From assembly GCA_964655235.1 (NCBI GenBank), contig CAZZLX010000001.1:1842-65841 (forward strand): DNA of 64,000 nucleotides. Direction: 5' to 3'. Of this stretch, positions 38,539 to 63,654 are shown piece by piece. The number at the start of each line of letters is the position of its first letter. The stretch's first letter is position 1. The notes beneath the pieces were generated by a model, which was not told where the DNA came from, ran no database searches, and was given only the letters and a program-made list of their open reading frames with translations. This DNA comes from an uncultured Rhizobium sp. Its GTDB lineage: Bacteria; Pseudomonadota; Alphaproteobacteria; SHVZ01. The position numbers and the translations under genes are program-made.

Positions 38539-38617
38539 GCAGCTCGACGGTCGGAGGTACGCTTCCGTCCGGACTCGCTTCAGGACCTCCGCCATCGATC
38601 CCGACGTTGCACGAGCC

Positions 38618-48152: not shown

Positions 48153-49853
48153 CGGCATCGCGTCGCGAACTGCATTCTCGATGCTGGCGGCCATGGCGCG
48201 GCCGTCGCATAGAGGCGATGCGCGCATGCGGTCGCGCAGGCTGCCTCTGAGGGCGGCCCGGCCCACATCGTCGGCGGCGAGTGCGACGGCCTTCGCGACG
48301 TAATCGTCCTCGTCGGTCGCGGACAGCTCTGGAAGTCCCAGAACACTGACGAACGCGTGGCTGTAGCGTCCGAGGACGCGGTCCCCCGCCAACGTAATCA
48401 CCGGCACGCCCATCCACATCGCTTCCAGCGTGGTGATCACGCCCCCATACGGCGTAGGGTCGAGCGCGATATCGATATCGGCATAGCTCGCCATGTGCGC
48501 GCCGATATCGGGCGTCGGCAGCCGGAGCTCGACGACGTCGGGCGCGACGCCGGCCCTGGAAAAGAGCGATCTCACCCGCGCCTGGGCTTCCGCCCCGAAG
48601 CCCCCTGCCTTCAGGACCAGGCGCGATCCCGGCACGGCGTTCAGGATCCTTGCCCAGAGACGTATTGTCCGCCCCGAAAGCTTGGCCAGCTGGTTGAAGC
48701 TGCCGAACACCACCCCCCGCGACGGCGCTGCAACCGCGTTCGGCAGATCAGCCAGGGGATCATAGACATAGGCCAGCGGCAGGCGCTCGACCCTCTCGAT
48801 GAACCAATCCTCGGCCCCTTGCGGGATGATCCAGCGATCGCCCAGAACCAGATCCACGGCATCCAGGCCCAGGCTTCCCATCGGCATCCAGTTCACCTGG
48901 AGCCTCCCCGGACGCCTCGCCAGAGCCAGCACCCGCGAGCCCGGCGGATAGCCGAGACTATCGATGACCACATCGATGTCGTCGTCGACGATGGCTGCTG
49001 CGACGGCCTCGTCGGAAAGCCCGGAAACGTCGCGGAACCCGGTCGAGGCGGCACGGAATCTCGCCGTGATCTGATCCTGACGATCCGCCGGAACGTCGGA
49101 ATAGCAGAACGCCTCGATCCGGGCGCGATCATGACCTTCGATCGTCGGCAGCAGTGTAAAGGCAGTGGTGTGGAGAGCGAAACTGCGGCCGGCGAGATAG
49201 CCGATGCGAAGGCGGCGCCCCGTTCCGCTGCGCTTTCGCGATGAGGCTCCGCACGCCGGCAGGGATCGCGCGAAGCGTTCATCGAACTCACGCGCCAACG
49301 CCAGGGACGTTGCCGGTCCAGCCTCTTCCAGCAGGAAGGATGCGCAGATCCGGGCTGCTTGCAGGCGGGGGGTCCGGGGAAGCCGATCCCCCGCGCCGAG
49401 CTTTGCCGCCGCCGGTGCGTCGCCGATCGCCAGGAGTTTGCTGATCGCCAAAAGCGCGATTTCCTCGGATGCCGGCTCCACGGCCAGCGCCCGCCGCGCC
49501 CAGTCGCTCCTTGTTTCGAAAAGGCCGGCGAGCGCCGCCATGCAGGCAGGATCGTCAGGTGCAAGGGCGAGAAGCCGCCGCAGGGGTCGTTGCGTGAGCT
49601 CGCGGCGACCGCCCTGCGTCATCGTCGCCACCAAGGCCCGAAGCGCAGGAATGTCGGCCGGCGCCAGAGCCAAGGTTCGCCTCAGCATCACCTCCGCAAG
49701 CGATGCGTCGGCTTGCCACCAAGTCGCCGCGAGCAGCTGCCAGGACCAGGGGATCGAAGGCTCTCTGACGATGGCGGCCCGTAACGATCGACGCGCCCCG
49801 TCTGTCTTACCTAAAGACAGATGAGCCAGGATGCTCGCTACGATGTCGCTCAT
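48147..49853 (-). CDS. TPR-repeat protein with C-terminal GT41-like domain
   Basis: 568 aa. Motifs: LRIGYLAGRSFALHT, VVFGSFNQLAKLSG, IDIALDPTPYGGVITTLEAMWMGVPVITLAGDRVLGRYSHAFV. Confidence 0.85.
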   Translation of the reverse strand: MSDIVASILAHLSLGKTDGARRSLRAAIVREPSIPWSWQLLAATWWQADASLAEVMLRRTLALAPADIPALRALVATMTQGGRRELTQRPLRRLLALAPDDPACMAALAGLFETRSDWARRALAVEPASEEIALLAISKLLAIGDAPAAAKLGAGDRLPRTPRLQAARICASFLLEEAGPATSLALAREFDERFARSLPACGASSRKRSGTGRRLRIGYLAGRSFALHTTAFTLLPTIEGHDRARIEAFCYSDVPADRQDQITARFRAASTGFRDVSGLSDEAVAAAIVDDDIDVVIDSLGYPPGSRVLALARRPGRLQVNWMPMGSLGLDAVDLVLGDRWIIPQGAEDWFIERVERLPLAYVYDPLADLPNAVAAPSRGVVFGSFNQLAKLSGRTIRLWARILNAVPGSRLVLKAGGFGAEAQARVRSLFSRAGVAPDVVELRLPTPDIGAHMASYADIDIALDPTPYGGVITTLEAMWMGVPVITLAGDRVLGRYSHAFVSVLGLPELSATDEDDYVAKAVALAADDVGRAALRGSLRDRMRASPLCDGRAMAASIENAVRDAMPS

Positions 49854-50109
49854 AAGCGTTCAGACACCAGGGGCCGGAACCGCCCTACGCGCTTCTCTCT
49901 GCTCGAGTCTCTCACCTCATCAAGCGCGGCATTGTTGTTCCGCAATATCCATGGTCGAAGCCGAATTGGGACGGGGTTTAAAGAACCACCTTTCGGCGAG
50001 TTGAGCGATTGAATCCTCTTACCAATAGCGTTTGAATATGCTGACATTTTTTTGCGTCTACGGGAATGCACCTTGACGCTTGTCCCCGCGCCTAAGGGTA
50101 AAACGAAGA

Positions 50110-50721
50110 ATGTTTGCTCTCTCTCCCGGTGCCACTATTTCGACGGATACGCAAGCATCGGGGCCGGTATCTCTAGGAGACGGGGTTGAAATTTTAGCCG
50201 GAGTCCGATTTGGCAAATTCACCCTTGTAAACGCTTGGTCAACAGTCAATGCAGCTGATATCGGGAACTACGTTTCTATCGGTGAATATGTTCGCATTAA
50301 TGTCTTCAATACGCATCCGATCAACTGGCTAAGCACGCATCCTTTTCAAGTCAATGACGCTCACTTCTCAGAGATTCCGGGCTATCGAGACGTTCACCGA
50401 ATTGCTCGAGCCTGGCATCCCGGAACACTTCACATCGGCCACGATGTCTGGATCGGCAGCCACGCCAAGTTACTGAACGCAGTAACCATCGGAACCGGCG
50501 CCGTTGTTGGCGCTGCCGCCGTTGTCGCAGACGACCTTCCGCCGTTCGCTATCGTTGGCGGGGTCCCGGCCAAGGTAATTCGTTACAGGTTCGAACAGCC
50601 AACGATCGCCCGCCTTCTTGCGTCCCGGTGGTGGGATCTTGACCCATGGGACCTAAGTGGTGTGCCGTTCAATGACATCAATCTCGCCCTCGATGAGATA
50701 GAACGAAGGAAAGGCGCATGA
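50110..50721 (+). CDS. Xenobiotic acetyltransferase family (Vat/CatB-type hexapeptide-repeat O-acetyltransferase) in a low-GC island
   Basis: MFALSPG start (ATG 50110). Motifs: HPINWLSTHPF, IGHDVWIGSHAKLL, PPFAIVGGVPAKVIRYRF, SRWWDLDPWDL, matching the VatD/SatA/CatB pattern. GC is about 52% against about 68% for its neighbours; the upstream 250 bp are also AT-rich. Confidence 0.8.
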   Translation: MFALSPGATISTDTQASGPVSLGDGVEILAGVRFGKFTLVNAWSTVNAADIGNYVSIGEYVRINVFNTHPINWLSTHPFQVNDAHFSEIPGYRDVHRIARAWHPGTLHIGHDVWIGSHAKLLNAVTIGTGAVVGAAAVVADDLPPFAIVGGVPAKVIRYRFEQPTIARLLASRWWDLDPWDLSGVPFNDINLALDEIERRKGA

Positions 50722-50766
50722 GGGCACAACCAAGCTTGCCGCGCCTCTGAAGAGCACCACCGAGAT

Positions 50767-52503
50767 TTAGCGCTCTCCGATGATGTTACGAATGGCGGTC
50801 TCGATGGCCGATGCCATCGCGCGACCGTCACCGAGAAGCGATCGTTTCATGCGCGAGCGAAGGTCGCTGCGCAGCGTCTCCCGCCGCAACTCGTCGGCAG
50901 CTAGCGCCTGGGCAGCTGCGACGTAACCATCCTCGTCGGCGACCCCAAGCTCCGGCATCCCGAGGGTATTTACGAACGCATAGCCATAGCGTCCCAGGAT
51001 TCGATCGCCCGCCAAGGTAACCACCGGGACTCCCATCCACATGGCCTCCAGCGACGTAATAACGCCACCATAAGGCGTCGGATCGAGAGCGATGTCGATA
51101 TCGGCATAGCTCGCCAAGTGCTGTTCGAACCCCGCTATCGGAAAGCGAAGCTCGACACGGTCAGCATTGATGCCTTCGCGCTCGAATTGCGCCAAAAGTC
51201 GTTGTGCGGTCTCTTCCGTCGTTAAACCGATCGCCTTGAGCATCAAGCGGGCATGCGGAACCAAACGCAATATTCGCGCCCAAAGACGGATCGTCCGCGT
51301 CGACAGCTTGGCAAGCTGGTTAAAACTCCCGAACACCACGTCGCGCGCTGGCGACGGCGACGGCTCGGGCATCACCACTAGCGGATCGTACATGATGGAG
51401 AGAGGCAACCGCACGACCCGTTCATCAAACCATCGCTCCGCCCCGACGGGAATTGTCCATCGGTCGCCGAAGACCACGTCGACCATACCCGAGCCAACAC
51501 TTCCCATCGACATCCAGTGGACCTGTAGCCGAGCGGGGCGGCGCGCCAGCGCCAGGAGACGAGATCCCTGCGGATAACCCAGGCTATCGATGACGACGTC
51601 TATCTCGTCGTCGGCGATCGCGGCGGCGAATGCCGAGTCGTCGAGGCTTAAGGTGTGCCTGAACCCAGTGGACGCGGCGAAGAAGCGCTCGGTGATCGAA
51701 TCCTGCCGTGACGGCCGCACATCGGAGTAGCAGAAGACTTCGACAGACTCACGATCATGGTGCTCGATTGTCGGCAGCAGCGTAAATGCAGCCGTGTGGA
51801 GCCGAAAGGAGTCACCCGCGACATAGCCGATGCGAAGCTTGCGCCGCCGACGATGAATGTTTGGAGCCCGACCGATACCCAATGGCCGGGCGAAGTGTTC
51901 GTCGAAGGTCCGAACGAGATCGAGAAACTGCGCAGGGCCGGCATCTTCGAGAAGATAGGCCGTACAGATCCGCGCCGCCTGGAGCCGATGATCAGAACCG
52001 TCCGAGACGGAATCAAGAAGCTTGGCCGCCTCTTGCGCCCGGCCCCGGACGAGGAGCTGGGCGTGACGTTCGAGGATCAGATCCACATTGCCTGGATTCA
52101 GCAAAAGGGCCCGCCGGCACCACGACAGGGCCGCGGCGCCGGGCATGTTCGCCAGGTTGGCGAGCGTGGCCGGTTCGTCCGGCTGCACGGCAGCGGCCAT
52201 CCGCAGCCAGCGTAGCGCGGCGATCGGCCTTCCCGACGACTTGAGCGTCGCCGCCAGGGCATTGAGGGCGGACACGTTCAACGGGTCGAGCGCCAGCACC
52301 CGGCGGAGCCAAATCTCGGCGTTTGCCGCGTCGTGCTGCCAGCGCATCGCCGCGAGAAGGTGGAGCGAGGTCCCGAGCCGCGGCTCGTCCGCGGCCAGGC
52401 GGCGCAGGGCCGCTTCCGCCTGGGCGACGCGCCCTTGAGCAAAATCCGCCCACGCCGACGCCAGCTGCGCCTGCGCTGTCTCGCGTCCGGAAGCCGCCGT
52501 CAT
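50767..52503 (-). CDS. TPR-repeat protein with C-terminal GT41-like domain (paralog of 48147..49853)
   Basis: 578 aa, ~75% identical to the 48147..49853 product. Motifs: LRIGYVAGDSFRLHT, VVFGSFNQLAKLST, IDIALDPTPYGGVITSLEAMWMGVPVVTLAGDRILGRYGYAFV. Confidence 0.85.
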   Translation of the reverse strand: MTAASGRETAQAQLASAWADFAQGRVAQAEAALRRLAADEPRLGTSLHLLAAMRWQHDAANAEIWLRRVLALDPLNVSALNALAATLKSSGRPIAALRWLRMAAAVQPDEPATLANLANMPGAAALSWCRRALLLNPGNVDLILERHAQLLVRGRAQEAAKLLDSVSDGSDHRLQAARICTAYLLEDAGPAQFLDLVRTFDEHFARPLGIGRAPNIHRRRRKLRIGYVAGDSFRLHTAAFTLLPTIEHHDRESVEVFCYSDVRPSRQDSITERFFAASTGFRHTLSLDDSAFAAAIADDEIDVVIDSLGYPQGSRLLALARRPARLQVHWMSMGSVGSGMVDVVFGDRWTIPVGAERWFDERVVRLPLSIMYDPLVVMPEPSPSPARDVVFGSFNQLAKLSTRTIRLWARILRLVPHARLMLKAIGLTTEETAQRLLAQFEREGINADRVELRFPIAGFEQHLASYADIDIALDPTPYGGVITSLEAMWMGVPVVTLAGDRILGRYGYAFVNTLGMPELGVADEDGYVAAAQALAADELRRETLRSDLRSRMKRSLLGDGRAMASAIETAIRNIIGER

Positions 52504-52513
52504 GAGCTGGCGT

Positions 52514-53302
52514 TCAGAATCCGGAGAAGCGGGTCAGCGCCACGGTCGAACCATTCGGCAGGATGATCGATCCCGCCGTCGTGCTCGAGAAGGTCGCCGT
52601 GATCTGCCCGGGGGTCGAGGTCCTGGAGGGTGTGGTGTAGGCGCCTGCCAGCGTCGGGCCGCCGCCATACTCCTCGAGCGTCGCCGTCATCGTCGGCCTG
52701 AGGCCGAAAGGACCGAAGACCAGGCTGCCGGTCGCCGTGTACCAGCGGCTGGTGCCGTCGCTTTCGTACATCATCAGCAGCATGAAGAGCTGGTTGCCCT
52801 GCACCTCGATGAAGTAGCCGCGGCCGGGCTCGTTCGCGTTCCACCACCACCCCGTCTCCGGAGCCCCGGATGGCCGCCCGATCGTCGCGCCGCTGCCGAC
52901 GAATTCGTAGCGCTTCAGCGCGAGCGACTGGGCGCCCGGAAGGATGATGGACGCGTCGGTTGCCGACGTCGTCGTGAACGAGAGGGTCCCGACGGCGATC
53001 GTCGAGGTCGGAGCGCGCGCCGCGCCCGACAGCGTCTGGCCGCCCGCATACTCGTACAGGTCGCCCGAGAACACGCTCGACGAGAACAGCGACCCGACCG
53101 ACGAGTACCAGGGCGAGGTTCCCCCTGAGCGATATCCAAGCACCCCGATCAGCGCCCGGGAGCCGCTGACCTCGACGATGTAGCCCCGTCCGGGCTGGCT
53201 GGTGCTCCACCAGACGCCGGTCGAGATCTGCGCCTGTGCCTGGACGGCCCAGAGCCCGAGAAGCAGGCAAGCCAGGAGCTGGAAGACGCGGTGTTTCATC
53301 AT
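52514..53302 (-). CDS. Secreted protein with two tandem ~120-aa repeats of an unknown domain
   Basis: ATG at 53302/53299 gives MMKHRVFQLLACLLLGLWAVQAQA|Q, a signal peptide. Repeats: TGVWWSTSQPGRGYIVEVSG...GTSPWYSSVGSL and ETGWWWNANEPGRGYFIEVQG...GTSRWYTATGSL, joined by T/S-rich linkers. 11 bp upstream of, and co-oriented with, the GT41 gene. Confidence 0.7.
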   Translation of the reverse strand: MMKHRVFQLLACLLLGLWAVQAQAQISTGVWWSTSQPGRGYIVEVSGSRALIGVLGYRSGGTSPWYSSVGSLFSSSVFSGDLYEYAGGQTLSGAARAPTSTIAVGTLSFTTTSATDASIILPGAQSLALKRYEFVGSGATIGRPSGAPETGWWWNANEPGRGYFIEVQGNQLFMLLMMYESDGTSRWYTATGSLVFGPFGLRPTMTATLEEYGGGPTLAGAYTTPSRTSTPGQITATFSSTTAGSIILPNGSTVALTRFSGF

Positions 53303-53401
53303 GGTGCGATGATATCGCATTTCGCGTGTCCGTTCTTTCGGCGCTTGTTCCCGACTGCCGGCCCTTGGCACACTGGAGGTCCCCCACCCATCGGATTCGC
53401 C

Positions 53402-54559
53402 ATGCGACTGACGTCGCGAGGAACACTCTACTCGATCCTCGAAGGACCGGACCGGACCAGCCTAAGGATCGAGGGCGGGGCGGCGCGCGGAACGGCCATC
53501 GTGGCCATCTCCCGGGACGCCGCCCGGGCGGACGACGACGCGCGGTTGCTGCGTGCCCACAGCATCTTCTGGGAATCGCGGGAGATCTATCGCACCCTTC
53601 TGGATCTTGGCTTTCATGTCGATGTGATCGACCTGGGGGCGCAGCTCCCGGCGGGCGGCGGCCCCTATGCTGTATCCCTGACGCTTCATTTCCAGCTTCT
53701 GATGGTCGAGGCCGCGCTCGCCCCGAACGCGATCCGCATCACCTGGCTGACGGGCTCCCATCCTCGCGTCCAGAACGCACGCGAGATCGCGCGCATCCGT
53801 GCGCTCGAGCAACGGCGGGACTGCGTCTATGAACCAAAGCGTCAGCGCGATCACGTCGATGCCGAGCTCGAAGCTATCGACCGTTCCGATCACTGCGTGC
53901 TCGTCGGCAACGCCGTCACGCTCGACACCTATCCCCGACGCTGGCATCCCAAGATGCGGTTGTTCGACGTGTCGGCGGCCAATGTCGGCTACGTCAAATC
54001 CGACGACATGCTCGCGCCGGCGGAGCGGGAGTTCGTCTGGTTCTCGGCCAGCGGAGCCGTCTTGAAGGGCCTCGATCTTCTTCTCGAACTCTTCTCGAGC
54101 CGCGATCTGCCGACGCTGCATGTCGTCGGCTCGCTCGATGGGGAAGAGGATTTTCGCAACATCTATCATGCGGAACTGAGTGGACACCCCCGCATCCGCT
54201 ATCACGGGTTCCTCCACGGCAACGACCCGGCACTCGCCGAGGTCTTCCGGCGCAGCGTCTCGGTTCTGCATCCCAGCGCCTCCGAAGGGATGGCGGGCTC
54301 AGTCGCGCACTGCCTCAAGGTCGGCCTCTATCCCGTGATCAGCCGGTCCTCCGGCATCGACCTCCCGCCCGGCTGCGGCCGGATACTGGACGGAAGCACG
54401 CTCGAGGAGATCGAAATCGCGGTGACCGATGTGCTGGCCATGCCCGATGCAGAGCTTCGTCGACAGATCTCGGCGCTGCAGTCGATGGCGGAGGAACGTT
54501 TCTCACGACAGGCATATACGCGCCGCCTGCGCGAGGTGCTCGGCGAGTTCCTTTCCTGA
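53402..54559 (+). CDS. Glycosyltransferase, GT4-like (group 1)
   Basis: ATG at 53402 (MRLTSRG). The C-terminus HPSASEGMAGSVAHCLKVGLYPVISRSSGID has an E-x7-E-like motif and a GT-B-like layout. Confidence 0.65.
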   Translation: MRLTSRGTLYSILEGPDRTSLRIEGGAARGTAIVAISRDAARADDDARLLRAHSIFWESREIYRTLLDLGFHVDVIDLGAQLPAGGGPYAVSLTLHFQLLMVEAALAPNAIRITWLTGSHPRVQNAREIARIRALEQRRDCVYEPKRQRDHVDAELEAIDRSDHCVLVGNAVTLDTYPRRWHPKMRLFDVSAANVGYVKSDDMLAPAEREFVWFSASGAVLKGLDLLLELFSSRDLPTLHVVGSLDGEEDFRNIYHAELSGHPRIRYHGFLHGNDPALAEVFRRSVSVLHPSASEGMAGSVAHCLKVGLYPVISRSSGIDLPPGCGRILDGSTLEEIEIAVTDVLAMPDAELRRQISALQSMAEERFSRQAYTRRLREVLGEFLS

Positions 54560-54609: not shown

Positions 54610-55374
54610 ATGACCACCGTCGCGATCATCCAGGCGCGCATGCGCTCGACCCGCCTTCCGGGGAAGGTCCTGGCCGACCTCGGCGGCAAACCGGTGCTCC
54701 AATGGGTCGCCGATGCCGCCCGGGCCATTCCCGGCGTCGACGAGGCGATCGTCGCGACCTCCACCGGTGCGGATGACGATGCCGTCGCGGCCTGGGGAGC
54801 GCGGTCCGCCGTCCGCATCTTCCGGGGCGACGAAGATGACGTTCTCGGACGCTTCGCCGGGGCCGCCCATCTCGGCAAGGCCGATCTGATCGTCAGGGTC
54901 ACTGCCGACTGTCCGCTGCTCGATCCCGTCGAGGCAGGGAAGGTCGTCGCGGCGGTCGCCGGCGGGGACGCGGACTACGCCTGCAACAACGACCCGCCGA
55001 CCTATCCCGACGGGCTCGACTGTGAGGCCTTCACCCGCGCCGCGCTCGATCGGGCCGCGGCCGAAGCGCGCCGGCCCAGCGAACGCGAGCACGTCACTCT
55101 CTTCATCCGCGAGCCCAAGAACGGCTTCCGCCGCATCAACATCCGTTGTCCGCATGGCGATCTCAGCGGCGAGCGATGGACCTTGGATACGCCCGAGGAT
55201 CTCGCCTTGCTCCGCGCCATCGCGCCCAGCCTCAGCGGTACGCGACCGCCGCGGCTGACCGAGGTGCTGGCGGCGATCGACCGGTCCCCGGAGCTCCGAT
55301 GCATCAATGGCGGCATCGTCCGCAACGAAGGGCTGATCAAGTCGCTGGCGCGCGACCGCGCCCAGGGCTTCTGA
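54610..55374 (+). CDS. Nonulosonic-acid cytidylyltransferase, SpsF/FlmC-type (PseF-like)
   Basis: MTTVAIIQARMRSTRLPGKVLADLGGKPVLQWV is the SpsF/FlmC acylneuraminate cytidylyltransferase family N-terminal signature. 254 aa. Confidence 0.8.
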   Translation: MTTVAIIQARMRSTRLPGKVLADLGGKPVLQWVADAARAIPGVDEAIVATSTGADDDAVAAWGARSAVRIFRGDEDDVLGRFAGAAHLGKADLIVRVTADCPLLDPVEAGKVVAAVAGGDADYACNNDPPTYPDGLDCEAFTRAALDRAAAEARRPSEREHVTLFIREPKNGFRRINIRCPHGDLSGERWTLDTPEDLALLRAIAPSLSGTRPPRLTEVLAAIDRSPELRCINGGIVRNEGLIKSLARDRAQGF

Positions 55375-55378
55375 CGCC

Positions 55379-56254
55379 GTGCAGTGCCTTGTTCTCGGCG
55401 CGACCGGCCTCCTTGGGCAAGCCTTCGTGACGACGGGCCTGGCCCGGGGCCACAGGATGACCGCAGCCGCCCGCCGCGGCGCCGCGCTCCCGATCGACGC
55501 GACCGACGACGATGCCCTGGTCCGGGCGATCGACGGGCTTCGTCCCGATGCCGTGATCAACTGCACCAGCTACGGCTCGCTCGAAGCCTGCGCCAAGGAC
55601 CCCGGAGCGGCATACCGGATCAACGCACGTCTCAACGCGCGCCTGGCCGAGCTCTGCCGCGCTGCCGACGCCCTGCTTGTGGCCATCGGGACGGATCACT
55701 ATTTCACCGGCGACGGGGCCGCCAGGCATGACGAGCTTGCCGATATCCGGCTCCTAAACGACTATGCCGTCGGAAAATATGCCGGCGAGCAATTGGCGCT
55801 TACCTGGCGGCGTTGCCTCGCCGTACGGACCAACGTTACCGGCTTTCGCGGATGGGCCGGCCAGCCCACCTTCGTCGAGTGGGCGTGCGAAAGCCTGCGG
55901 GCCGGCGCACCGATCGAGCTCTTCGACGACTATTATTGCTCCACCATCGACTCGGGCAGCCTGGCGCTGGCCGTGATCGAGATGATGGAGCGGGGAGTCA
56001 CTGGGTTGTTCAATGTCGCCTGCCGTGAGGTCGCGTCGAAGCGCCGTTTCGTGCTCGCCCTCGCCGACCGCCTGTCGCTTCCGGGACATCACCTGCGCAC
56101 CGGATCGGTGAGGTCGCTGTCGGTCCCGCGCGCCGAGAGCGCCGGTCTCGACGTCGCCAAGGCCGAGGCCGCCCTCGGCCGGCCGCTCCCGGGCTTCGAC
56201 GCGGTGATCGGCACGCTGGCGAACCAGGCTCGTGCCGCGGCAGGACGCGCATGA
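55379..56254 (+). CDS. RmlD-like NAD(P)-dependent sugar-nucleotide reductase/epimerase
   Basis: GTG start. LVLGATGLLGQAF Rossmann motif, followed by …DATDDDALVRAIDGLRPDAVINCTSY…, as in the RmlD substrate-binding family. 291 aa. Confidence 0.75.
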   Translation: MQCLVLGATGLLGQAFVTTGLARGHRMTAAARRGAALPIDATDDDALVRAIDGLRPDAVINCTSYGSLEACAKDPGAAYRINARLNARLAELCRAADALLVAIGTDHYFTGDGAARHDELADIRLLNDYAVGKYAGEQLALTWRRCLAVRTNVTGFRGWAGQPTFVEWACESLRAGAPIELFDDYYCSTIDSGSLALAVIEMMERGVTGLFNVACREVASKRRFVLALADRLSLPGHHLRTGSVRSLSVPRAESAGLDVAKAEAALGRPLPGFDAVIGTLANQARAAAGRA

Positions 56255-57942
56255 TCATCCTCGGCGTTTCCTTCCTCAGCGACGCCTCCGCCGTCGTTCT
56301 TCGCGACGGACGGCTGGTCGCGGCCATCGCCGAGGAACGTCTCAATCGCGTCAAGCAGTGGAACGGCATCCCGCACGGCGCGATCGCCAAGGTGCTGGCG
56401 ATGGCCGGGATCACGCTCGACCAGGTCGACGTGGTCGCGACCCACGGCGCCGCGCCGTCCGAGCCGCCCTCCGAACCCTATCGCGAGAAGGAGCGTGCGA
56501 TCCGCGCCGCCGGCCTTCCTGCCGATCTGGCGGAAAGCCAGCTCAAGCGGCTGGCCGAGCGCGAAGGGCACGAGCGGCGCGTCCTTGCCGAACGGACGCC
56601 CGGCTATCTGGCCGAGGTGCGGGCGCTCGGCCGGCCGCTCGATGTCCATGGCCACCATGAGTCCCACGCCGCGACCGCCCTGATCGGGCGCGGCGCTGGC
56701 GACGGCTGGATCGTGACGCTGGACGGATGGGGCGAGGACGGCTCCGGCACCGTCTGGAAGACCGATGGCGCCCGCATGGAGCGTGTCGCCTTCTCCAATA
56801 CCTTCGACTCCCTCGGCTATTTCTACGGCGCCGTCACCAAGGCGCTGGGATTCATCCCCCACCGCCACGAGGGCAAGGTGCTCGGCCTCGCGGCCTACTG
56901 CCAGCAGCCGCAGTCGTTCCGCGAGCTTCGCTCGATGATCGACTACGACCCCGGCCGCTTCCGCTTCCTCGGGCGCATGGAGCGAGGCCTCTATGTGCCC
57001 CGCATGGAGAACCCGCTGCTGTCGGCGCTCGTCGCCCGCCTGCCCCGCGAGGACATCGCCGCCGGAACCCAGCAGAGCCTCGAACAGGTCGTCTCCGAGC
57101 TGATTGACGATTTCGGTCCCGGCGCGCACAAGATCATGGTGGCCGGCGGCGTCTTCGCCAATGTGAAGCTCAACCAGCGGATCGCCGAACGGCCGAACGT
57201 CACCGACGTCTACGTCTTTCCCAACATGGGGGACGGTGGCCTCGCGGCAGGGGCCGCCTGGCTCAGCCACCTGCAGCGCGTCGGCACGACGCCCGAGCGG
57301 TTCGAGACGGCGCTGCTCGGCCCGGCGCCGACCGAAGCCGAGGTGCTGCACGAGCTCAAGAGCAGCGGCCTCGCCTACACACGCCCGGCCGACATGGAGG
57401 ATCGCGTCGCCGAGCTGCTGGCATCCAATCATGTCGTGGCGCGCTGCGCCGGCCCGATGGAGTACGGACCCCGCGCGCTCGGCAACCGCAGCATCCTCTA
57501 TCACGGCTCCGATCCGGGCGTGAACGACTGGCTGAACCGCCGGCTCAAGCGCTCCGAGTTCATGCCGTTCGCGCCGGCGACGCTGGCCGAGGCAGCGGCA
57601 GAGCGCTACATCGGCCTGGAGAAGGCGCGCGAGACCGCGAAGTTCATGGCGATCACCTTCGCCTGCACCAAGGTCATGCAGGACGAGGCGCCGGCGGCCG
57701 TCCATGTCGACGGCACGGCACGCCCGCAGGTCGTGGATCCCGTCAGCTACCCGGCCTTCCACAAGATCCTCACCGCCTATCGGCGCAGGACCGGCCGGGC
57801 CTCGGTGATCAACACCAGCTTCAACATGCACGAGGAACCGATCGTCTGCTCGGCCGCGGACGCCATGCGGGCGTTCCGGGCGAGCGACCTCCCCTACCTC
57901 GTCCTCGGCGACTATCTTGTGTCGTCGCCGTCCGCCGCCTGA
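56251..57942 (+). CDS. Carbamoyltransferase (NodU/CmcH family)
   Basis: 563 aa. MIILGVSFLSDASAVVL..., HHESHAATA metal motif, and a C-terminal domain ...FMPFAPATL...SVINTSFNMHEEPIVCS. ATGA overlap with the upstream gene. Confidence 0.85.
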   Translation: MIILGVSFLSDASAVVLRDGRLVAAIAEERLNRVKQWNGIPHGAIAKVLAMAGITLDQVDVVATHGAAPSEPPSEPYREKERAIRAAGLPADLAESQLKRLAEREGHERRVLAERTPGYLAEVRALGRPLDVHGHHESHAATALIGRGAGDGWIVTLDGWGEDGSGTVWKTDGARMERVAFSNTFDSLGYFYGAVTKALGFIPHRHEGKVLGLAAYCQQPQSFRELRSMIDYDPGRFRFLGRMERGLYVPRMENPLLSALVARLPREDIAAGTQQSLEQVVSELIDDFGPGAHKIMVAGGVFANVKLNQRIAERPNVTDVYVFPNMGDGGLAAGAAWLSHLQRVGTTPERFETALLGPAPTEAEVLHELKSSGLAYTRPADMEDRVAELLASNHVVARCAGPMEYGPRALGNRSILYHGSDPGVNDWLNRRLKRSEFMPFAPATLAEAAAERYIGLEKARETAKFMAITFACTKVMQDEAPAAVHVDGTARPQVVDPVSYPAFHKILTAYRRRTGRASVINTSFNMHEEPIVCSAADAMRAFRASDLPYLVLGDYLVSSPSAA

Positions 57943-57952
57943 GACCGAAATC

Positions 57953-59377
57953 ATGAACGACATCGCGCCGCTGCCGAACCACATCCCGCCCCGGACGATC
58001 ACCCGCTTCACGCGATCGGACGCCTATCGCGCCCAGGTCCACGAGGCGATCGCCGGCGGCGCCCACACCTATTCGAAGGGCGACGACCAGTTCCCGATCC
58101 GCTCCCCGGCCGCGATCGCCCGCGGCAAGGGCGGTCGGGTCTGGGATCCCGACGACAACGAGTATGTCGACGTCGCTCTCGGCCTCGGCTCGATCAGCCT
58201 TGGCCATGCGTACGAGCCGGTGCTCGCGGCGGTCCGCGCGCAGCTCGACCTCGGCGTCAACTTCCAGCGGCCGGCGACAGTGGAGCTCGAACTCGCCCAT
58301 GCGCTGAAGGCCGTCATCCCGGGTGCGGAGCGGGTCAAGTTCGCTAAGAACGGCTCGACCGTCACGACGGCCGCGGTGAAGCTGGCGCGCGCGTTCACCG
58401 GCCGCGACCTCGTTGCCTTTCCGTTCAACCACCCGTTCTACAGCTACGACGACTGGTACATCGGCCGGGGCAAGGCCGCCTCCGGCGTCCCCACCGGCAC
58501 GATGGCGATGTCGCTGACCTACGACTCGACCAAGCCGGACACGCTGGCCGCGCTGTTCAAGCAGCATCCCGGCAAGATCGCCGCGGTCATCACCGAGACC
58601 GAGGAACTGTTCCCGACCTCGCCCGAGTACATCCGCGAGGTCGAGCGGCTGGCGCGCAAGGACGGCGCCCTGCTCATCCTCGACGAGATGGTCTCCGGCT
58701 TCCGCTCGAGCTTCCCCGGCGCCTATCCGCGCCTCGGCCTCACGCCCGACCTGGTGACCTGGGGCAAGGGTGCCGGCAACGGCTTCTCCTTCTGCGCGCT
58801 GACCGGGCGGGCCGACGTCATGGACCTCGGCGGCCTGAAGCAGTTGGAGCGGCCCCGCGTCTTCCTTATCTCGACCACCCATGGCGGCGAGGCGCATGCG
58901 CTGGCGGCCGGGCTCGCCGTGCTCGAGGAGTACCGCCGCCACGACGTACTCGGCCATCATCATCGGCTCGTGGCGCGGATGGCGGCGTCGTTCAAGGCGA
59001 CGATCGACCGCTATGGCCTCGGCGATGCGATCCAGGCCTTCGCCTCTCCTTGGCGCATCGTTTTCGTCTGCAAGGATGCCAAGGGCGCGGTGTCGCTCGG
59101 CCACCGCACGCTGCTGATGCAGGAGATGATTGGCCGCGGTGTCCTGTTCCAGGGCCTGTTCCTGCCCTGCTTCGCGCACACCGACGCCGACATGGAGCGG
59201 ATCGAGCAGGCTTTCGACGCGTCCTGCCAGGTCTATAAGCTGGCGCTCGAGCACGGCTACGAGCGCTACCTCGACGGCGAGCCGCTCCGGCCGGTGTTCC
59301 GGCGCTACAACGGCTGTCGCCAATCCTGCCCGACCGAGCCTTGCCCGCACGAGCAGACCTGCCGCACGACGCCGTGA
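57953..59377 (+). CDS. Class-III (HemL/GSA-aminomutase-like) PLP-dependent aminotransferase
   Basis: ATG at 57953 (MNDIAPLP). ...LILDEMVSGFR...TWGKGAGNGF has the PLP-lysine context, and HGGEAHALAAGLAVLE fits the fold. The unusual Cys-rich C-terminal tail is unexplained. Confidence 0.78.
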   Translation: MNDIAPLPNHIPPRTITRFTRSDAYRAQVHEAIAGGAHTYSKGDDQFPIRSPAAIARGKGGRVWDPDDNEYVDVALGLGSISLGHAYEPVLAAVRAQLDLGVNFQRPATVELELAHALKAVIPGAERVKFAKNGSTVTTAAVKLARAFTGRDLVAFPFNHPFYSYDDWYIGRGKAASGVPTGTMAMSLTYDSTKPDTLAALFKQHPGKIAAVITETEELFPTSPEYIREVERLARKDGALLILDEMVSGFRSSFPGAYPRLGLTPDLVTWGKGAGNGFSFCALTGRADVMDLGGLKQLERPRVFLISTTHGGEAHALAAGLAVLEEYRRHDVLGHHHRLVARMAASFKATIDRYGLGDAIQAFASPWRIVFVCKDAKGAVSLGHRTLLMQEMIGRGVLFQGLFLPCFAHTDADMERIEQAFDASCQVYKLALEHGYERYLDGEPLRPVFRRYNGCRQSCPTEPCPHEQTCRTTP

Positions 59378-60408
59378 GGCGCGGCGCGCTCGTCATCCGC
59401 GCGGACGCTGATCCGACCATCGGCATCGGACATGTAGGACGGACGCTTGCCTTGAGCGCCGCCTGGCGCCAGGGCGGCGGGACGGTGCGCTACGTCACGA
59501 CCGCGCCGCTGTCCGCGGGGGCAAGATCCTGGATCGCCTCCGCCGGCATCGAGTTCGAGGTCATCGAGGCCGAGCGCTACTCCGACGAGGATGCGCGGCA
59601 GACGGCAGCGCGGGCCACCGGCGCGACGGTGGTCATGGACGTCTTCGGAACCCCCCGCGCCTATCGCACGGCGCTTCGAAGCCAGGTCGAGCGGCTCGTG
59701 ATCATCGACGATACCGGAGGGCCGGGTCCCTGGTCGGCCGACGTCATCGTCAACCAGAACCACGGCGCCTCGGCCGCGCTCTATCCTCAGCACGATGAAG
59801 GGTCGGCGTTGCTGCTGGGGCCGCGCTTCGCACTGCTCCGTCCGGAGTTCGCCCGAAGACGGGCGTTGAGACACCGCGCCGAAGGCCGAGTCCACCGCAT
59901 CGCGGTCAGCCTCGGCGGGACCGATCCCAAGGACGCGGCATCCCTCGTCCTTTCGGCCTTCGCGGCCCTGCCCGAGTCCGGCTGGCGGGCGATCCTCGTC
60001 GCCGGCGCCGGCAACCCGCGTGCCGCGGCCCTGAAGGCGCGGACCGCAGCCCTCGGCAGGCCGGTCCACGTGATCCGCAGTCCCAGCTCGATGGCGAGGC
60101 TCCTTGCCTGGGCCGATCTCGCGATCCTCGCCGGCGGGGTCACCGTGTGGGAGGCGCTGTCGCTGGGCGTTCCGGTGATCGGCATCGCCGTCGCCGACAA
60201 TCAGGTGCCGGCGGCCGAAGCCCTCTCCCGCGACGGCCTCTGGCATTTTCTCGGCCAGGTCGAGGAGATCGGGGCTGCGCAGGTCTCCGATGCGATCGAG
60301 CGGCTTCGTGCCGACTCCGGGGAGCGCCGACGGCTGTCGGCGGCCGGTCAAGCGCTGGTGGATGGAAGAGGCGCGGAACGGGTCGCCGACGTACTGGCCC
60401 GTCTCTGA
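59374..60408 (+). CDS. pseG: UDP-2,4-diacetamido-2,4,6-trideoxy-beta-L-altropyranose hydrolase (PseG)
   Basis: GTG at 59374 overlaps the upstream stop (GTGA). ALVIRADADPTIGIGHVGRTLAL is the PseG signature, and the C-terminal half is MurG-like (GGVTVWEALSLGVPVIGI). Confidence 0.82.
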   Translation: MRRGALVIRADADPTIGIGHVGRTLALSAAWRQGGGTVRYVTTAPLSAGARSWIASAGIEFEVIEAERYSDEDARQTAARATGATVVMDVFGTPRAYRTALRSQVERLVIIDDTGGPGPWSADVIVNQNHGASAALYPQHDEGSALLLGPRFALLRPEFARRRALRHRAEGRVHRIAVSLGGTDPKDAASLVLSAFAALPESGWRAILVAGAGNPRAAALKARTAALGRPVHVIRSPSSMARLLAWADLAILAGGVTVWEALSLGVPVIGIAVADNQVPAAEALSRDGLWHFLGQVEEIGAAQVSDAIERLRADSGERRRLSAAGQALVDGRGAERVADVLARL

Positions 60409-60480
60409 CGGCCGCCCCTGGCCCCGGGCCGGCAGGATCCCCAAATGACGGCAATGCGCGTATCGGCTAAGAAGGGCCCC

Positions 60481-61551
60481 ATGCCTGCCACGTCGATCAA
60501 CATCGCCGGCCGGGAGATCGGCCCCGGCCACCCGCCCTACGTCGTCGCCGAGATGTCGGGCAACCACAACGGCGACATCAGGCGCGCCTACGCCATCATG
60601 GAAGCGGCGAAGCAGGCCGGCGCCGACGCCGTGAAGCTCCAGACCTACACCGCCGACACCATCACCATCGACCACGACGCGCCCGAGTTCCGCATCACCG
60701 GCGGCCTCTGGGACGGGCGCTCGCTTTACGAGCTCTACGGCGAGGCGCATACGCCCTGGGAATGGCATCGCGACCTTTTCGCCAAGGGCCGCGAGCTCGG
60801 CATCCACGTGTTCAGCGCTCCCTTCGATCCGACCGCGATCGACTTTCTCGAGGAGCTCGGCGCGCCAGCCTACAAGATCGCGTCGTTCGAGATCGTCGAC
60901 CTGCCGCTGATCCGACGCGCCGCGGCGACCAGCAAGCCGATGATCATCTCGACCGGCATGGCGACGATGCCCGAGATCGAGGAGGCGGTCGCCGCCGCAC
61001 GCGATGCCGGCTGCACGGCGCTCACGCTGCTCCACTGCGTGAGTGGCTATCCGACTCCGGCCGAGGAAGCCAACCTCGCCACCATCCCCGACCTCGCCCG
61101 ACGTTTCGACTGCCCGATCGGGCTCTCCGACCACACCCACGGCATCGCGGTCGCGGTTGCCGGCGCGGCGCTCGGCGCGGTGGTGATCGAGAAGCACCTG
61201 ACCCTGGCGCGCGCCGACGGCGGTCCGGACTCCGCCTTCTCGCTCGAGCCGGCCGAGCTCGCGGCGCTGGTCCCGGCCGTACGCACCGCCGCAGCCGCGC
61301 TCGGCAAGGCCGGATATGACCTGAAGCCGAGCGAGCGCGGTAACACCGTGTTCCGCCGCTCGCTCTATGCAGTCGCCGACATCCGCAAGGGCGATGTCTT
61401 CGACGAGCGCAACATCCGCTCGATCCGGCCCGGCTTCGGCATGGCGCCGAAGCACCTGCCCGCCGTGCTCGGCCGTCGCGCCACGCGCGATATCCCGCGC
61501 GGCACGCCGCTCGACAGCGGCATGGTCGACAGCAACCTCGGCCCGGGCTGA
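60481..61551 (+). CDS. pseI: Pseudaminic acid synthase (PseI, NeuB family)
   Basis: ATG at 60481 with AAGAAGGG upstream. The ORF-track start is 60445. Motifs: INIAGREIGPGHPPYVVAEMSGNHNGDIRRA, KLQTY, LSDHTHG, and a C-terminal SAF/antifreeze-like domain. Confidence 0.88.
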   Translation: MPATSINIAGREIGPGHPPYVVAEMSGNHNGDIRRAYAIMEAAKQAGADAVKLQTYTADTITIDHDAPEFRITGGLWDGRSLYELYGEAHTPWEWHRDLFAKGRELGIHVFSAPFDPTAIDFLEELGAPAYKIASFEIVDLPLIRRAAATSKPMIISTGMATMPEIEEAVAAARDAGCTALTLLHCVSGYPTPAEEANLATIPDLARRFDCPIGLSDHTHGIAVAVAGAALGAVVIEKHLTLARADGGPDSAFSLEPAELAALVPAVRTAAAALGKAGYDLKPSERGNTVFRRSLYAVADIRKGDVFDERNIRSIRPGFGMAPKHLPAVLGRRATRDIPRGTPLDSGMVDSNLGPG

Positions 61552-61602: not shown

Positions 61603-61635
61603 AAAGGTGAGGCGTCCTTGGTACGCCTCACCTTT
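61603..61635. terminator. Hairpin between convergent pseI and the GT41 gene (possible bidirectional terminator)
   Basis: AAAGGTGAGGCG (61603-61614), a 9-nt loop, then CGCCTCACCTTT (61624-61635). A-rich on the 5' side and T-rich on the 3' side. Confidence 0.55.
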
Positions 61636-61821
61636 AGAACGAATGCATCGCCGGCTTGGAGAGTTCCGGCGTTCGGCCGATGTCGGTGAAGCAGGCATGT
61701 CAGAACGGCTCCCCGACACCCTTTCGTCGGAACGAGCAGCCGACGGGTTCAATCGCTCTGCGGCATTCTTCGCCTTGCTTCGACCGTGCGAATTCGCGGC
61801 GGTACGCGTATACGATCCGCG

Positions 61822-63654
61822 TCAGCAAGCCGCCTCGAGCGTCAGGAGTCCGTTCCATCGTTGGCCGGCGCAGTGCGCCCGCCACATCGTGCGGTAAGCC
61901 GCTTCCACGCTTCTCGCATATCGCAAGGGATCGCAGAGGCGCGACGCGAGCACGCGGCCTCGAAGCGAAGCGCGAAGCGAAGCGCGCCGCGTCGGATCCA
62001 ACGCCAGCGCGGACGCGATCCGCACGTAGTCGTCGGGCGTCGCCGCGATCAGCTCGTCGAGACCGACCTGGCGCAGATGCGCCGCGCCGACCCGGCCGAG
62101 GAACCGCCGACCGGCCAAGGTCACGACGGGCACCCCCATCCACAGAGCCTCGAAGGTCGTCGTCGCCCCGTTGAAGGGAAACGGATCCAGAATGACGTCG
62201 ATCGACGCCAGGTGGTCGAGCTGGTCGTCGCGTTCGCGACGGCCGATGACGAAGTCCAACCGGTCGCCGTCGATCCCATGGCGGGCAAGACAGGCCTTGA
62301 TTGGCGTCCGCCCGTCCTCGTGCGCGAAGTGATCAAAGTATCGAAAGGAAAGACGCGAGCCCGGTACGGCGACAAGCACCCGCGCCCACAGCGCCAGGAC
62401 TTCCTCGCTCAGCTTCGCCGGGTTGTTGGTCGACCCGAAGACCACCGGTCCCCGTTCCCTTGCGGGCGGAGGATCGTGGGGACGCGATGACGGAGCGGTA
62501 TGGAGATAGAAGCTCGGCAGCCGGACCAGCGTCTCGGTGAACAGCTCCGGGCCGTCCGGCGGGTTGAGGTCGGCGTCGGTGAACCAGTAGTCCATCGCCG
62601 CGAGGCCGGTCGAGGTCAGGTCGTGCATCGAGGCCTGGATCGGCGCCGGCCGGTGGCTCGCGACGCCAGGACGGTTGGCGCTGGTATGGCCGGCGGCGGC
62701 GACCAGGATGTCGATCCCGTCGGCGGCGATCAGCGCGGCGACCTCCCTGTCGTCGAGACGCGCGACCTCGCGCCAGCCGTCCCCGAAGGCGGCCCGGAAG
62801 CGGCCCGCCAGGCCATCGGACACCGGCCCCGCGGCATAGCCGTGGATACCGACGACCCGCGGGTCGTGATGCTCGATCAGGCCGATCAGGTTCCACCCGA
62901 CCGGATGGCTCCGAAGATCGGACGAGAGGTAGCCGATCTTGAGGCGCCGGTCGGGATCGGGGTCGCGCGTCCGCGGCGGTGCCGACGACGAGGCGTAGTG
63001 CGCGCTCCATGCACGCACGGTGGCGAAGAGCCGCCGCTCATCGACATCCGGGCGATAGGTTCTGGCGAAGACGAGGTTACTGTGGATGGCTGCGTTCCTT
63101 GCGACAGCCAAGGCGCGCTGCAGGCCCAGGTCGGCGCCCGCGTGATCCAGCGTGGCCTGCTGGATCTGAGCCAGGTTGCTGAGAATGGCGGGTATCTGCG
63201 GGGCAAGTGCCAGACCCTGCCGGCTGGCGCGCATCGCCGCGGCCAGCCGACCATCGCCGCGAAGAGCATTCGCGAGATTGCCGTAAGGGGGAAACCAGGT
63301 CGGGCGAAGGCATATCGCGCGCCGGAACCATCTCTCCGCGGGGGCCGAAGCGCCGAGCTCAAGCTCGGCCACGCCACAGCTGTTGGCGGCTTCGACCTGA
63401 CCGGGCTCGATGGCGAGGGCGCGTCGATACCGCCGGCGCGCGCCGAGGCCGTTCCCGTTTCTATAAGCGCACAGGCCGAGGCCGAGCTCGGCGCGTGGGC
63501 GATCGGCAGCAATCGCCAGCGAACGCGCGAACCAGACCACCGCTTCCGCGATACGACCGTCGTCGTGAAGACCGAAGGCGAGCTGCTCCAGCAGTCCAGG
63601 ACTCCCTGGGGCCTCGATCACCGGAACCATGCGACGGGCCGTTGCTGTCGTCAT
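61822..63654 (-). CDS. TPR-repeat protein with C-terminal GT41-like domain
   Basis: 610 aa. Motifs: LKIGYLSSDLRSHPVG, VVFGSTNNPAKLSE, IDVILDPFPFNGATTTFEALWMGVPVVTLAGRRFLGRVGAAHL. Confidence 0.85.
   Translation of the reverse strand: MTTATARRMVPVIEAPGSPGLLEQLAFGLHDDGRIAEAVVWFARSLAIAADRPRAELGLGLCAYRNGNGLGARRRYRRALAIEPGQVEAANSCGVAELELGASAPAERWFRRAICLRPTWFPPYGNLANALRGDGRLAAAMRASRQGLALAPQIPAILSNLAQIQQATLDHAGADLGLQRALAVARNAAIHSNLVFARTYRPDVDERRLFATVRAWSAHYASSSAPPRTRDPDPDRRLKIGYLSSDLRSHPVGWNLIGLIEHHDPRVVGIHGYAAGPVSDGLAGRFRAAFGDGWREVARLDDREVAALIAADGIDILVAAAGHTSANRPGVASHRPAPIQASMHDLTSTGLAAMDYWFTDADLNPPDGPELFTETLVRLPSFYLHTAPSSRPHDPPPARERGPVVFGSTNNPAKLSEEVLALWARVLVAVPGSRLSFRYFDHFAHEDGRTPIKACLARHGIDGDRLDFVIGRRERDDQLDHLASIDVILDPFPFNGATTTFEALWMGVPVVTLAGRRFLGRVGAAHLRQVGLDELIAATPDDYVRIASALALDPTRRASLRASLRGRVLASRLCDPLRYARSVEAAYRTMWRAHCAGQRWNGLLTLEAAC

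Follow-up and report, generated by a model that had tools for sequence, protein, structure and literature searches.

Nonulosonic acids (sialic, pseudaminic and legionaminic acids) are carried on flagella, capsules, S-layers and lipopolysaccharide (LPS), and govern motility, phage recognition and immune evasion. In Campylobacter jejuni and Helicobacter pylori, pseudaminic acid (Pse) is made by PseB, PseC, PseH, PseG, PseI and PseF, which take uridine diphosphate N-acetylglucosamine (UDP-GlcNAc) through a 6-deoxy-L-hexose and condensation with phosphoenolpyruvate (PEP) to a sugar activated with cytidine monophosphate (CMP). Caulobacter crescentus possesses a corresponding Flm system, in which Pse is attached to flagellins by FlmG, whose TPR domain is combined with a GT-B domain (PMC7591256). 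The natural 9-deoxy nonulosonates so far described from bacteria are all 5,7-diamino sugars (PMC5595891). The stretch analysed here, 64 kb of a contig (CAZZLX010000001.1) of an uncultured Rhizobium sp. and hereafter called the window, includes a Pse-type operon with an RmlD-like reductase, a carbamoyltransferase and a class-III aminotransferase among its genes. Its informative unit appears to be the pair of RmlD-like reductase and carbamoyltransferase, standing in place of PseC and PseH. By the sequential action of PseB, 4-ketoreduction, 4-O-carbamoylation, PseG, PseI and CMP activation, this organism may make a 7-O-carbamoyl, 7-deamino analogue of Pse, a reading to which we give slightly less than an even chance. 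The features concerned are the following:

2916-3941, + strand: PseB, inverting UDP-GlcNAc 4,6-dehydratase (TIGR03589, 463 bits, cut-off 408)
54610-55374, + strand: SpsF/FlmC-type cytidylyltransferase, presumed CMP-nonulosonate synthetase (CTP_transf_3, 1.5e-24)
55379-56254, + strand: RmlD-like extended short-chain dehydrogenase/reductase (SDR), presumed 4-ketoreductase acting on the PseB product (RmlD_sub_bind, 3.9e-30)
56251-57942, + strand: NodU/CmcH/TobZ-type carbamoyltransferase (Carbam_trans_N and Carbam_trans_C)
57953-59377 (alternative start 57917), + strand: class-III (GSAM-like, PRK06209) pyridoxal phosphate (PLP) aminotransferase (Aminotran_3)
59374-60408 (alternative start 59341), + strand: PseG-type UDP-sugar hydrolase (TIGR03590)
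60445-61551 (alternative start 60481), + strand: PseI, pseudaminic acid synthase of the NeuB family with a SAF domain (TIGR03586)
61604-61636, no strand: hairpin between the convergent pseI and TPR-GT41 genes (folding)

Domains were assigned with Pfam and NCBIfam profiles and their curated cut-offs on the predicted proteins of the window (~50), and the six tightly packed open reading frames (ORFs) of the operon, whose third-position GC is 0.82-0.91, agree with the original prediction, which had been made from the letters alone. It also described all of these genes as translationally coupled, which holds for four of the five junctions: spsF and the reductase gene are separated by 4 nt, the reductase and carbamoyltransferase genes overlap by ATGA (-4), the carbamoyltransferase and aminotransferase genes are 10 nt apart if the ATG at 57953 is taken, and the aminotransferase gene and pseG overlap by GTGA (-4) if the GTG at 59374 is taken, but pseG and pseI have 36 nt between them. 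The hairpin that it placed at the end of the operon is confirmed by folding as a perfect 12-14 bp stem (-24.6 kcal/mol, z = -4.7), which lacks a T-tract and for that reason escaped a terminator scan. All operon genes are under purifying selection, with ratios of nonsynonymous to synonymous substitution (dN/dS) of 0.04-0.19 for every gene (0.04 for pseI) relative to a syntenic locus of 85% nucleotide identity, L009.

The overall logic is that of the CMP-Pse pathway, from which the operon departs at PseC, PseH and PseF. PseB, correctly located ~50 kb away by the original prediction, is encoded without its usual pseC neighbour and is flanked by aldo-keto reductase and TPR-GT41 genes. PseG (169 bits against TIGR03590, cut-off 153; 33% identical to Caulobacter FlmD) matches C. 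jejuni PseG (PDB 3HBM) weakly over its full length, and PseI scores 499 bits against TIGR03586 (cut-off 340). The cytidylyltransferase falls far below the PseF model (TIGR03584, 19 bits, cut-off 206); it shares 40% identity with Caulobacter FlmC (E 4e-29) and matches PDB 6OEW (4e-25), and as an FlmC/SpsF-type analogue presumably fills the role of PseF. The SpsF protein of Bacillus subtilis, in comparison, is required for the transfer of legionaminic acid and not for its synthesis (PMC7439481). Neither a DegT nor a GNAT domain was detected among the predicted proteins of the window, and tblastn searches of its six frames with Caulobacter FlmB (PseC) and FlmH (PseH), taken from the supplement of PMC7591256, gave best E values of only 0.077 and 0.25, respectively; the absence of both genes, as first noted, thus holds by two methods throughout the 64 kb.

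The replacement of PseC and PseH is best seen by comparison with a locus that was found via the glycosyltransferase of the GT-B fold encoded upstream of spsF. This locus (L169, metagenome-assembled genome contig JACOSK010000133.1) encodes, in order, a GT-B protein, an SpsF~aminotransferase fusion, PseC (51% identical to Caulobacter FlmB), a PseG~GNAT fusion, PseI and a convergent TPR-GT41 protein. The order in the window is GT-B, SpsF, RmlD-like reductase, carbamoyltransferase, aminotransferase, PseG, PseI and a convergent TPR-GT41 protein. The frame is the same, with identities of 61% for GT-B, 53% for SpsF, 74% for PseI and 54% for TPR-GT41, but the RmlD-like reductase and carbamoyltransferase, absent from L169, occupy the place of its PseC and GNAT domain, and its SpsF is fused to the aminotransferase. 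Because of this arrangement, reduction and O-carbamoylation may have replaced amination and N-acetylation at C4 of the hexose, which becomes C7 of the nonulosonate.

The two enzymes of the pair have the features expected for such a function. The reductase, at 112 bits against the rmlD model TIGR01214 (cut-off 224), appears to be RmlD-like rather than RmlD, and it did not match the WbcJ-type reductase model; its GxxGxxG motif (G7, G10, G13), T105 and Y129xxxK133 are retained by 95% or more of 20 carbamoyltransferase-linked homologues. The carbamoyltransferase has a two-domain architecture, Kae1-like and YrdC-like (PF02543, 8e-31; PF16861, 1e-53; residues 3-558), with H135, H139, D158 and D328 (HxxxH...D...D) invariant in 27 homologues. 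These metal-binding residues align with the HHEAHA, LDG and HD motifs of GdmN, and we take them to be equivalent to H114, H118, D137 and D338 of TobZ. Among solved structures, the enzyme is closest to the O-carbamoyltransferases GdmN, NovN and TobZ (1e-55 to 1e-61), and its score against the NodU equivalog is low (111 bits, cut-off 1000). By resemblance to these enzymes, it would use carbamoyl phosphate and ATP via carbamoyl-AMP, with an O-acceptor.

Close homologues of the carbamoyltransferase, in the hundreds, are found at 55-65% identity in distant phyla, recurrently in the order PseB-like, RmlD-like, carbamoyltransferase. Eighty carbamoyltransferase loci from species-representative genomes were annotated against a reference set. 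Identity thresholds for orthologues were considered and rejected: L045 (50%) and L071 (48%) have no nonulosonate context, whereas Pelagibacteraceae loci at 40% do. Thresholds having proved imperfect, they were replaced by a neighbour-joining tree of 82 homologues with a midpoint root, in which all 21 loci with adjacent RmlD-like, PseB-like or PseG/PseI genes form a single clade, while 0 of the other 61 homologues have such neighbours. The clade spans Alphaproteobacteria (including Pelagibacteraceae), Nitrospinota, Omnitrophota, Thermodesulfobacteriota, Thaumarchaeota and Methanosarcinales. The RmlD-like gene is directly upstream of the carbamoyltransferase gene in 18 of its 21 loci, PseG is sometimes interleaved with the pair (L004, L012, L013, L022), and the RmlD-like proteins of carbamoyltransferase loci cluster apart from those of PseC-containing loci. 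The PseI proteins, in comparison, carry no evident specificity signature: by identity, those of carbamoyltransferase loci are not obviously distinct from those of PseC loci.

Two further features were observed in the clade. In L011/L027, L012/L015, L017 and L019, a second NeuB homologue is encoded directly downstream of the carbamoyltransferase, besides a bona fide PseI; it is 31-35% identical to PseI of the window and nearest to the NeuB model, below its cut-off. The clade locus of a member of the Rhodospirillaceae (L010) includes, at 11644-14372 (- strand), a Maf-like gene for a putative flagellin nonulosonate transferase, assigned by eye from a DUF115-type motif, which together with a hexapeptide acetyltransferase homologue (39% identical to that of the window) adjoins the carbamoyltransferase gene; to judge from these genes, the predicted sugar may go onto flagellin in that organism.

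The gene content of the clade is consistent with the replacement. PseC/DegT is missing from the core of all 21 loci. In Nitrospinota (L011 and L027), 11 co-directional genes specify PseB, RmlD-like reductase, carbamoyltransferase, NeuB2, HisH, HisF, WbuX, MT, PseF, PseG and PseI, with no aminotransferase, and the PseB and PseI of the Nitrospinota member pass the Pse equivalog cut-offs. A DegT protein is encoded beside PseB in 2 of 13 carbamoyltransferase-positive loci versus 12 of 20 negative ones (Fisher test, p = 0.015, uncorrected for phylogeny); in the two positive loci, the DegT proteins are distant and encoded ~7 kb from the carbamoyltransferase. Conversely, the carbamoyltransferase is absent from ~50 Pse loci anchored on the aminotransferase, the relatives of the window not counted.

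These distributions bear on an alternative in which ordinary N-acetylated Pse (Pse5Ac7Ac) is made with the help of pseC and pseH located elsewhere, the carbamoyltransferase decorates O4 or O8 of Pse or CMP-Pse (+43 Da), and the RmlD-like enzyme is either unrelated or epimerising. TobZ, NovN and GdmN do act late, on finished scaffolds, and dispersed pathway genes, such as a pseB 50 kb off, are also a feature of Caulobacter (PMC7591256). Late decoration should, however, allow some co-occurrence with PseC and PseH, whereas the carbamoyltransferase is absent from the ~50 PseC-type loci, PseC is missing from the core of the whole clade, and PseC and GNAT stand in L169 exactly where the window has the pair. 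The Nitrospinota cluster without an aminotransferase also argues against it, and the near-obligate adjacency of the RmlD-like gene would be unexplained. Late decoration is therefore considered unlikely.

The role of the class-III aminotransferase was examined in 80 loci anchored on it. The enzyme barely passes the cut-off of NF004856 (PRK06209; 492 bits, cut-off 486), and its PLP-binding lysine K272 and D244 are invariant. The name 'aminomutase' attached to the PRK06209 family is provisional. The earlier description of it as HemL-like was right as to class (Aminotran_3), but the score against the hemL model (TIGR00713) is 168 bits, far below the cut-off of 527. A role in haem synthesis was rejected on this score and because the context is always sugar biosynthesis, never haem. 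The typical order in these loci is PseB, DegT, aldo-keto reductase, (NeuB-like), SpsF, aminotransferase, (GNAT), PseG and PseI. The aminotransferase gene adjoins SpsF-type genes in >30 loci; P0149, P0182 and L169 encode the enzyme as a fusion with an SpsF-type domain, and ~25 loci also encode a DegT-type PseC. The PseG, aminotransferase and cytidylyltransferase trio has been noted in the LPS loci of Legionella pneumophila serogroups 6 and 12 (PMC3694923). Since it is adjacent or fused to SpsF-type genes and usually coexists with PseC, the aminotransferase does not appear to be a replacement for PseC, an explanation that was accordingly down-weighted. Rather, it seems to be a widespread accessory of SpsF/FlmC-type cytidylyltransferase clusters. 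The presence of GNAT genes in 6 of 10 clade loci with a class-III aminotransferase, and in 0 of 6 without, hints at an amination and N-acylation module that would work with the aldo-keto reductase.

In many Pse-type loci (L092, L097, L118, L120, L123, L124, L135, L144, L155 and L157, and also L006), the aminotransferase gene belongs to a four-gene module with an aldo-keto reductase, a second NeuB-like synthase and a second SpsF subfamily (~27% identical to SpsF of the window). The NeuB-like protein is divergent (20-30% identical to PseI, under the cut-offs of both NeuB and PseI) and is absent from the window. This module suggests a second, uncharacterised ulosonic-acid branch.

If the aminotransferase nevertheless replaced PseC at C4, the carbamoyltransferase could, in lieu of PseH, N-carbamoylate the resulting amine, giving a 7-ureido Pse (residue mass 317.122). 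This route would account for the lack of PseC and PseH and for the fact that, in the window, L002 and L009, an aminotransferase is encoded beside an acyl-type transferase; L123 and L133 likewise combine PseB and the aminotransferase without DegT, and some members of the wider superfamily (Kae1/TsaD, HypF) transfer carbamoyl-type groups to N or S. It is nonetheless improbable: the aminotransferase coexists with a bona fide PseC in most loci, including L169; at least seven clade loci (L010, L011, L027, L022, L023, L024 and L026) have neither a class-III aminotransferase nor a core DegT; the nearest solved homologues of the carbamoyltransferase are all O-carbamoyltransferases; and the conserved RmlD-like reductase would be left without a role. 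Furthermore, the nucleotide-sugar 4-aminotransferases known to us are of the DegT type, none of them class III.

Another reading has the additional enzymes serve an unrelated pathway (tailoring of antibiotics or polysaccharides, or haem synthesis), merely co-located with pseG and pseI. It draws on the fame of the carbamoyltransferase family in antibiotic synthesis and on the HemL-like aminomutase annotation of the aminotransferase. The hemL score speaks against the latter, and the genes are linked to those for nonulosonates by overlapping start and stop codons and by a gene order conserved across phyla. No polyketide synthase, nonribosomal peptide synthetase or aminocyclitol scaffold genes were found in the window, and co-location by chance is very hard to credit.

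Several points weigh against a 7-O-carbamoyl product made by the pair. The Fisher test ignores phylogeny and compares two sets of loci that were sampled with different anchors. GNAT and the carbamoyltransferase occur together in six loci, each with a class-III aminotransferase, which leaves room for a route to a 7-acetamido group by aminotransferase and GNAT. With pseB encoded ~50 kb from the operon, the genome could likewise contain pseC and pseH outside the window. The regiochemistry and the choice of an O- over an N-acceptor are predicted from family resemblance and gene content. The lack of any reported carbamoylated or 7-oxy nonulosonate means novelty, yet it also means that there is no precedent. 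Finally, the clade loci L004, L005 and L014 have no PseI within the fetched flanks, so the product of the reductase and carbamoyltransferase may sometimes be used as a UDP-sugar.

Taken further, this last point would have the pair make a separate UDP-carbamoylated 6-deoxy-L-hexosamine from the PseB intermediate, to be transferred by a UDP-dependent glycosyltransferase, with normal Pse made in parallel. The three loci just named, which have the order PseB, RmlD-like, carbamoyltransferase, and the UDP-type GT-B gene just upstream in the window both favour such a UDP-sugar. In four lineages, however, the pair is enclosed by spsF and pseG/pseI, the stop and start codons overlapping, and PseG is interleaved with it in several loci. 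L169 has the GT-B gene without the pair, so the GT-B enzyme appears to be independent of the product of the pair, and the window has no PseC or PseH for a parallel normal pathway. A separate UDP-sugar thus has only a small chance of being the product in the window.

The preferred pathway to the 7-O-carbamoyl analogue would begin with the conversion of UDP-GlcNAc by PseB to UDP-2-acetamido-2,6-dideoxy-beta-L-arabino-hexos-4-ulose. The 4-keto group would be reduced to a hydroxyl by the RmlD-like SDR, and the TobZ/NovN-like carbamoyltransferase would then form, from carbamoyl phosphate and ATP via carbamoyl-AMP, a 4-O-carbamate that is isosteric with the normal 4-acetamido group; the substrate of these two enzymes and the order in which they act are predictions. 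Removal of UDP by PseG and condensation with PEP by PseI would give 5-acetamido-7-O-carbamoyl-3,5,9-trideoxy-non-2-ulosonic acid (C12H20N2O9, 336.117 Da), which the FlmC-type cytidylyltransferase would turn into the CMP-sugar used by the FlmG-like TPR-glycosyltransferases encoded nearby. The isosteric nature of the carbamate would explain why an ordinary-looking PseG and PseI have been kept. The class-III aminotransferase, probably with the aldo-keto reductase encoded near pseB, would be a separate module tied to the cytidylyltransferase, most likely exchanging another hydroxyl or carbonyl for an amino group on the free or CMP-activated nonulosonate.

The original prediction of a modified nonulosonic acid therefore survives in part: the operon is of Pse type with extra enzymes and a carbamoylated product is the most likely modification, but the aminotransferase is probably no stand-in for PseC. 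The signature of +43 Da expected at first would apply only if a carbamoyl group were added onto Pse5Ac7Ac; if the carbamate replaces the 7-acetamido group, the shift would be +1.979 Da. The predicted residue masses are 316.127 for Pse5Ac7Ac, 318.106 for the 7-O-carbamoyl analogue, 317.122 for the 7-ureido analogue and 359.133 for Pse5Ac7Ac with an added carbamoyl group.

Searches of the open literature returned no carbamoylated or 7-oxy nonulosonic, pseudaminic or legionaminic acid, and nothing relevant on the class-III aminotransferase in such clusters beyond annotation tables. The operon points to a nine-carbon sugar with a carbamate that has yet to be described, and the related gene clusters suggest that such a sugar is widespread among environmental bacteria and archaea. 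A broader and distinctly tentative proposal is that the RmlD-like/carbamoyltransferase clade represents a new chemical class, the 7-O-carbamoyl 7-deamino Pse analogues, that originates from abundant environmental lineages (SAR11/Pelagibacteraceae, Nitrospinota, Omnitrophota, Thaumarchaeota and Methanosarcinales) and is used here, by an expanded FlmG-like family, on secreted non-flagellar proteins. If true, an O-carbamate in place of the 7-acylamino group would break the 5,7-diamino rule, the seemingly incomplete Pse clusters of many metagenome-assembled genomes would be explained, and mass spectrometry surveys set for +43 Da would miss the sugar, which should differ from Pse5Ac7Ac by +1.98 Da. 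The class-III aminotransferase tied to SpsF/FlmC-type cytidylyltransferases is a second widespread and distinct problem, and both modules are found in globally abundant marine and groundwater lineages.

Other genes of the window may take part in the synthesis or use of the sugar:

1954-2883, - strand: aldo-keto reductase, divergent from pseB (Aldo_ket_red, 1.9e-30)
50080-50721, + strand: hexapeptide-repeat (Vat/CatB-like) acetyltransferase (Hexapep; Vat/CatB/phn_thr hits under their cut-offs)
53402-54559, + strand: GT-B (GT4-like) glycosyltransferase, probable first gene of the transcription unit (AlphaFold2 model and Foldseek)
61822-63654, - strand: TPR and GT41-like protein of FlmG-like architecture, convergent with pseI (Glyco_transf_41, 1.5e-36, and TPR)

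The first three of these were missed by the original prediction. The GT-B gene has the same orientation as spsF and ends 50 nt before it; it is kept directly upstream of spsF in L009 (87%), L016 (60%) and L169 (61%), and has a dN/dS of 0.14 relative to L009. Matches of its product to Pfam GT1 are weak and a sequence search against the PDB gave nothing, but its AlphaFold2 model (pLDDT 95) resembles UDP-sugar GT-B enzymes of the GT4 type, the best Foldseek folds being SenB, BshA, PglA and SdgB. The aldo-keto reductase is a recurrent companion of the aminotransferase/SpsF module, 41% identical to those encoded between PseC and SpsF/aminotransferase in many loci. Homologues of the hexapeptide acetyltransferase adjoin the carbamoyltransferase in L010, as mentioned above, and in L022 (31%); whether it is part of the pathway is uncertain. 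It is encoded in a segment (48147-50767) that is absent from the syntenic L009, has a GC content of 58% versus ~67% elsewhere, also contains a duplicate of the adjacent TPR-GT gene 50767-52503 (59% identity), and looks like a recent duplication or insertion.

The TPR-GT41 protein convergent with PseI has kept its position in L009 (84%) and L169 (54%) and, by analogy with FlmG, is a candidate user of the CMP-sugar. FlmG-like TPR-glycosyltransferases flank the operon in the window as well as in its relatives L008-L010 and L169, so the earlier proposal that these enzymes use the donor sugar is plausible. The window as a whole encodes ~10 TPR and GT41-like paralogues with 27-74% mutual identity (3961-6258, 22187-24112, 24121-25881, 31233-33182, 33179-34948, 39972-42023, 42028-44097, 48147-49853, 50767-52503 and 61822-63654), along with a TPR-GT61 protein (29323-30807), a TPR-Glyco_trans_1_2 protein (38450-39994) and four TPR-only proteins. 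By domain content, putative protein O-glycosyltransferases are expanded to an unusual degree within this single 64-kb stretch.

A type II secretion cluster (10888-21051: GspE, F and G, minor pseudopilins, a K-like protein and the secretin GspD) is located amid the glycosyltransferase genes, and no flagellar genes were found in the window. For these reasons, glycosylation may be directed at secreted or surface proteins and not at flagellins. The ORF at 37075-38484 (+ strand) specifies ~440 amino acids with a signal-peptide-like N-terminus, 56% of them Thr, Ala, Ser or Gly, and no Pfam or NCBIfam match; its product may be a secreted or surface protein that is heavily O-glycosylated. Directly upstream of the GT-B gene and divergent from it, 52514-53371 (- strand) encodes a secreted protein of 285 amino acids with two internal repeats (WW..EPGRGYxxEVxG ... 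GTSxWY) and S/T-rich stretches, 87% identical in L009, which matched no known family. Between a TPR-GT gene and the secretion cluster, a possible local regulator is encoded at 6080-8161 (+ strand; 693 amino acids, the sole domain being a C-terminal HTH_3 of Xre type), followed by a DUF5672 protein (8174-9007, + strand). Three further ORFs of the gene map based on third-position GC (77-1552, + strand; 9828-10778, + strand; 21216-22373, - strand) are Arg/Gly-rich, low-complexity-looking and without a matching family; they are probably not real genes, and the intervals may in part be non-coding or mis-framed.

Of the systems compared with the operon, the LPS loci of Legionella pneumophila strains outside serogroup 1 (GNAT, PseG, 'GSA aminomutase', cytidylyltransferase and HisF/HisH; PMC3694923) share the same uncharacterised trio of PseG-like protein, class-III aminotransferase and cytidylyltransferase, but no carbamoyltransferase/RmlD-like pair is reported there, and the context is O-antigen rather than protein glycosylation. 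The Caulobacter Flm system (FlmA/B/H/D, NeuB, FlmC and FlmG; PMC7591256) has in common with the window the FlmC and FlmD homologues and the dispersal of genes, and the TPR and GT-B proteins beside the operon are FlmG-like by architecture alone. The window differs in the absence of FlmB and FlmH homologues, in having ~10 TPR-GT paralogues versus a single FlmG, and in having a type II secretion cluster and no flagellar genes.

The C. jejuni/H. pylori pathway is like that of the window in PseB, PseG and PseI, whereas the window lacks PseC and PseH throughout its 64 kb, has an FlmC/SpsF-type enzyme instead of PseF, and adds the RmlD-like reductase, the carbamoyltransferase and the class-III aminotransferase. 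With RmlD and with the reductases of UDP-4-keto-6-deoxy-L-hexosamines (WbjC/FnlB/CapF and WbvR), the reductase of the window shares the RmlD_sub_bind fold and a T/Y/K triad at RmlD-like spacing, and its predicted substrate is likewise an L-configured 4-keto-6-deoxy sugar nucleotide; it differs in being coupled to a carbamoyltransferase and PseG/PseI, not to a 2-epimerase. The carbamoyltransferase, for its part, shares the Kae1-like and YrdC-like domains and the HxxxH/D/D residues of TobZ, NovN, GdmN and NodU, which act by the carbamoyl-AMP mechanism. It belongs to a clade of its own, and its predicted acceptor is a nucleotide sugar rather than an antibiotic or Nod factor; among these enzymes, NovN carbamoylates the hydroxyl of an L-6-deoxysugar, akin to the acceptor predicted here.

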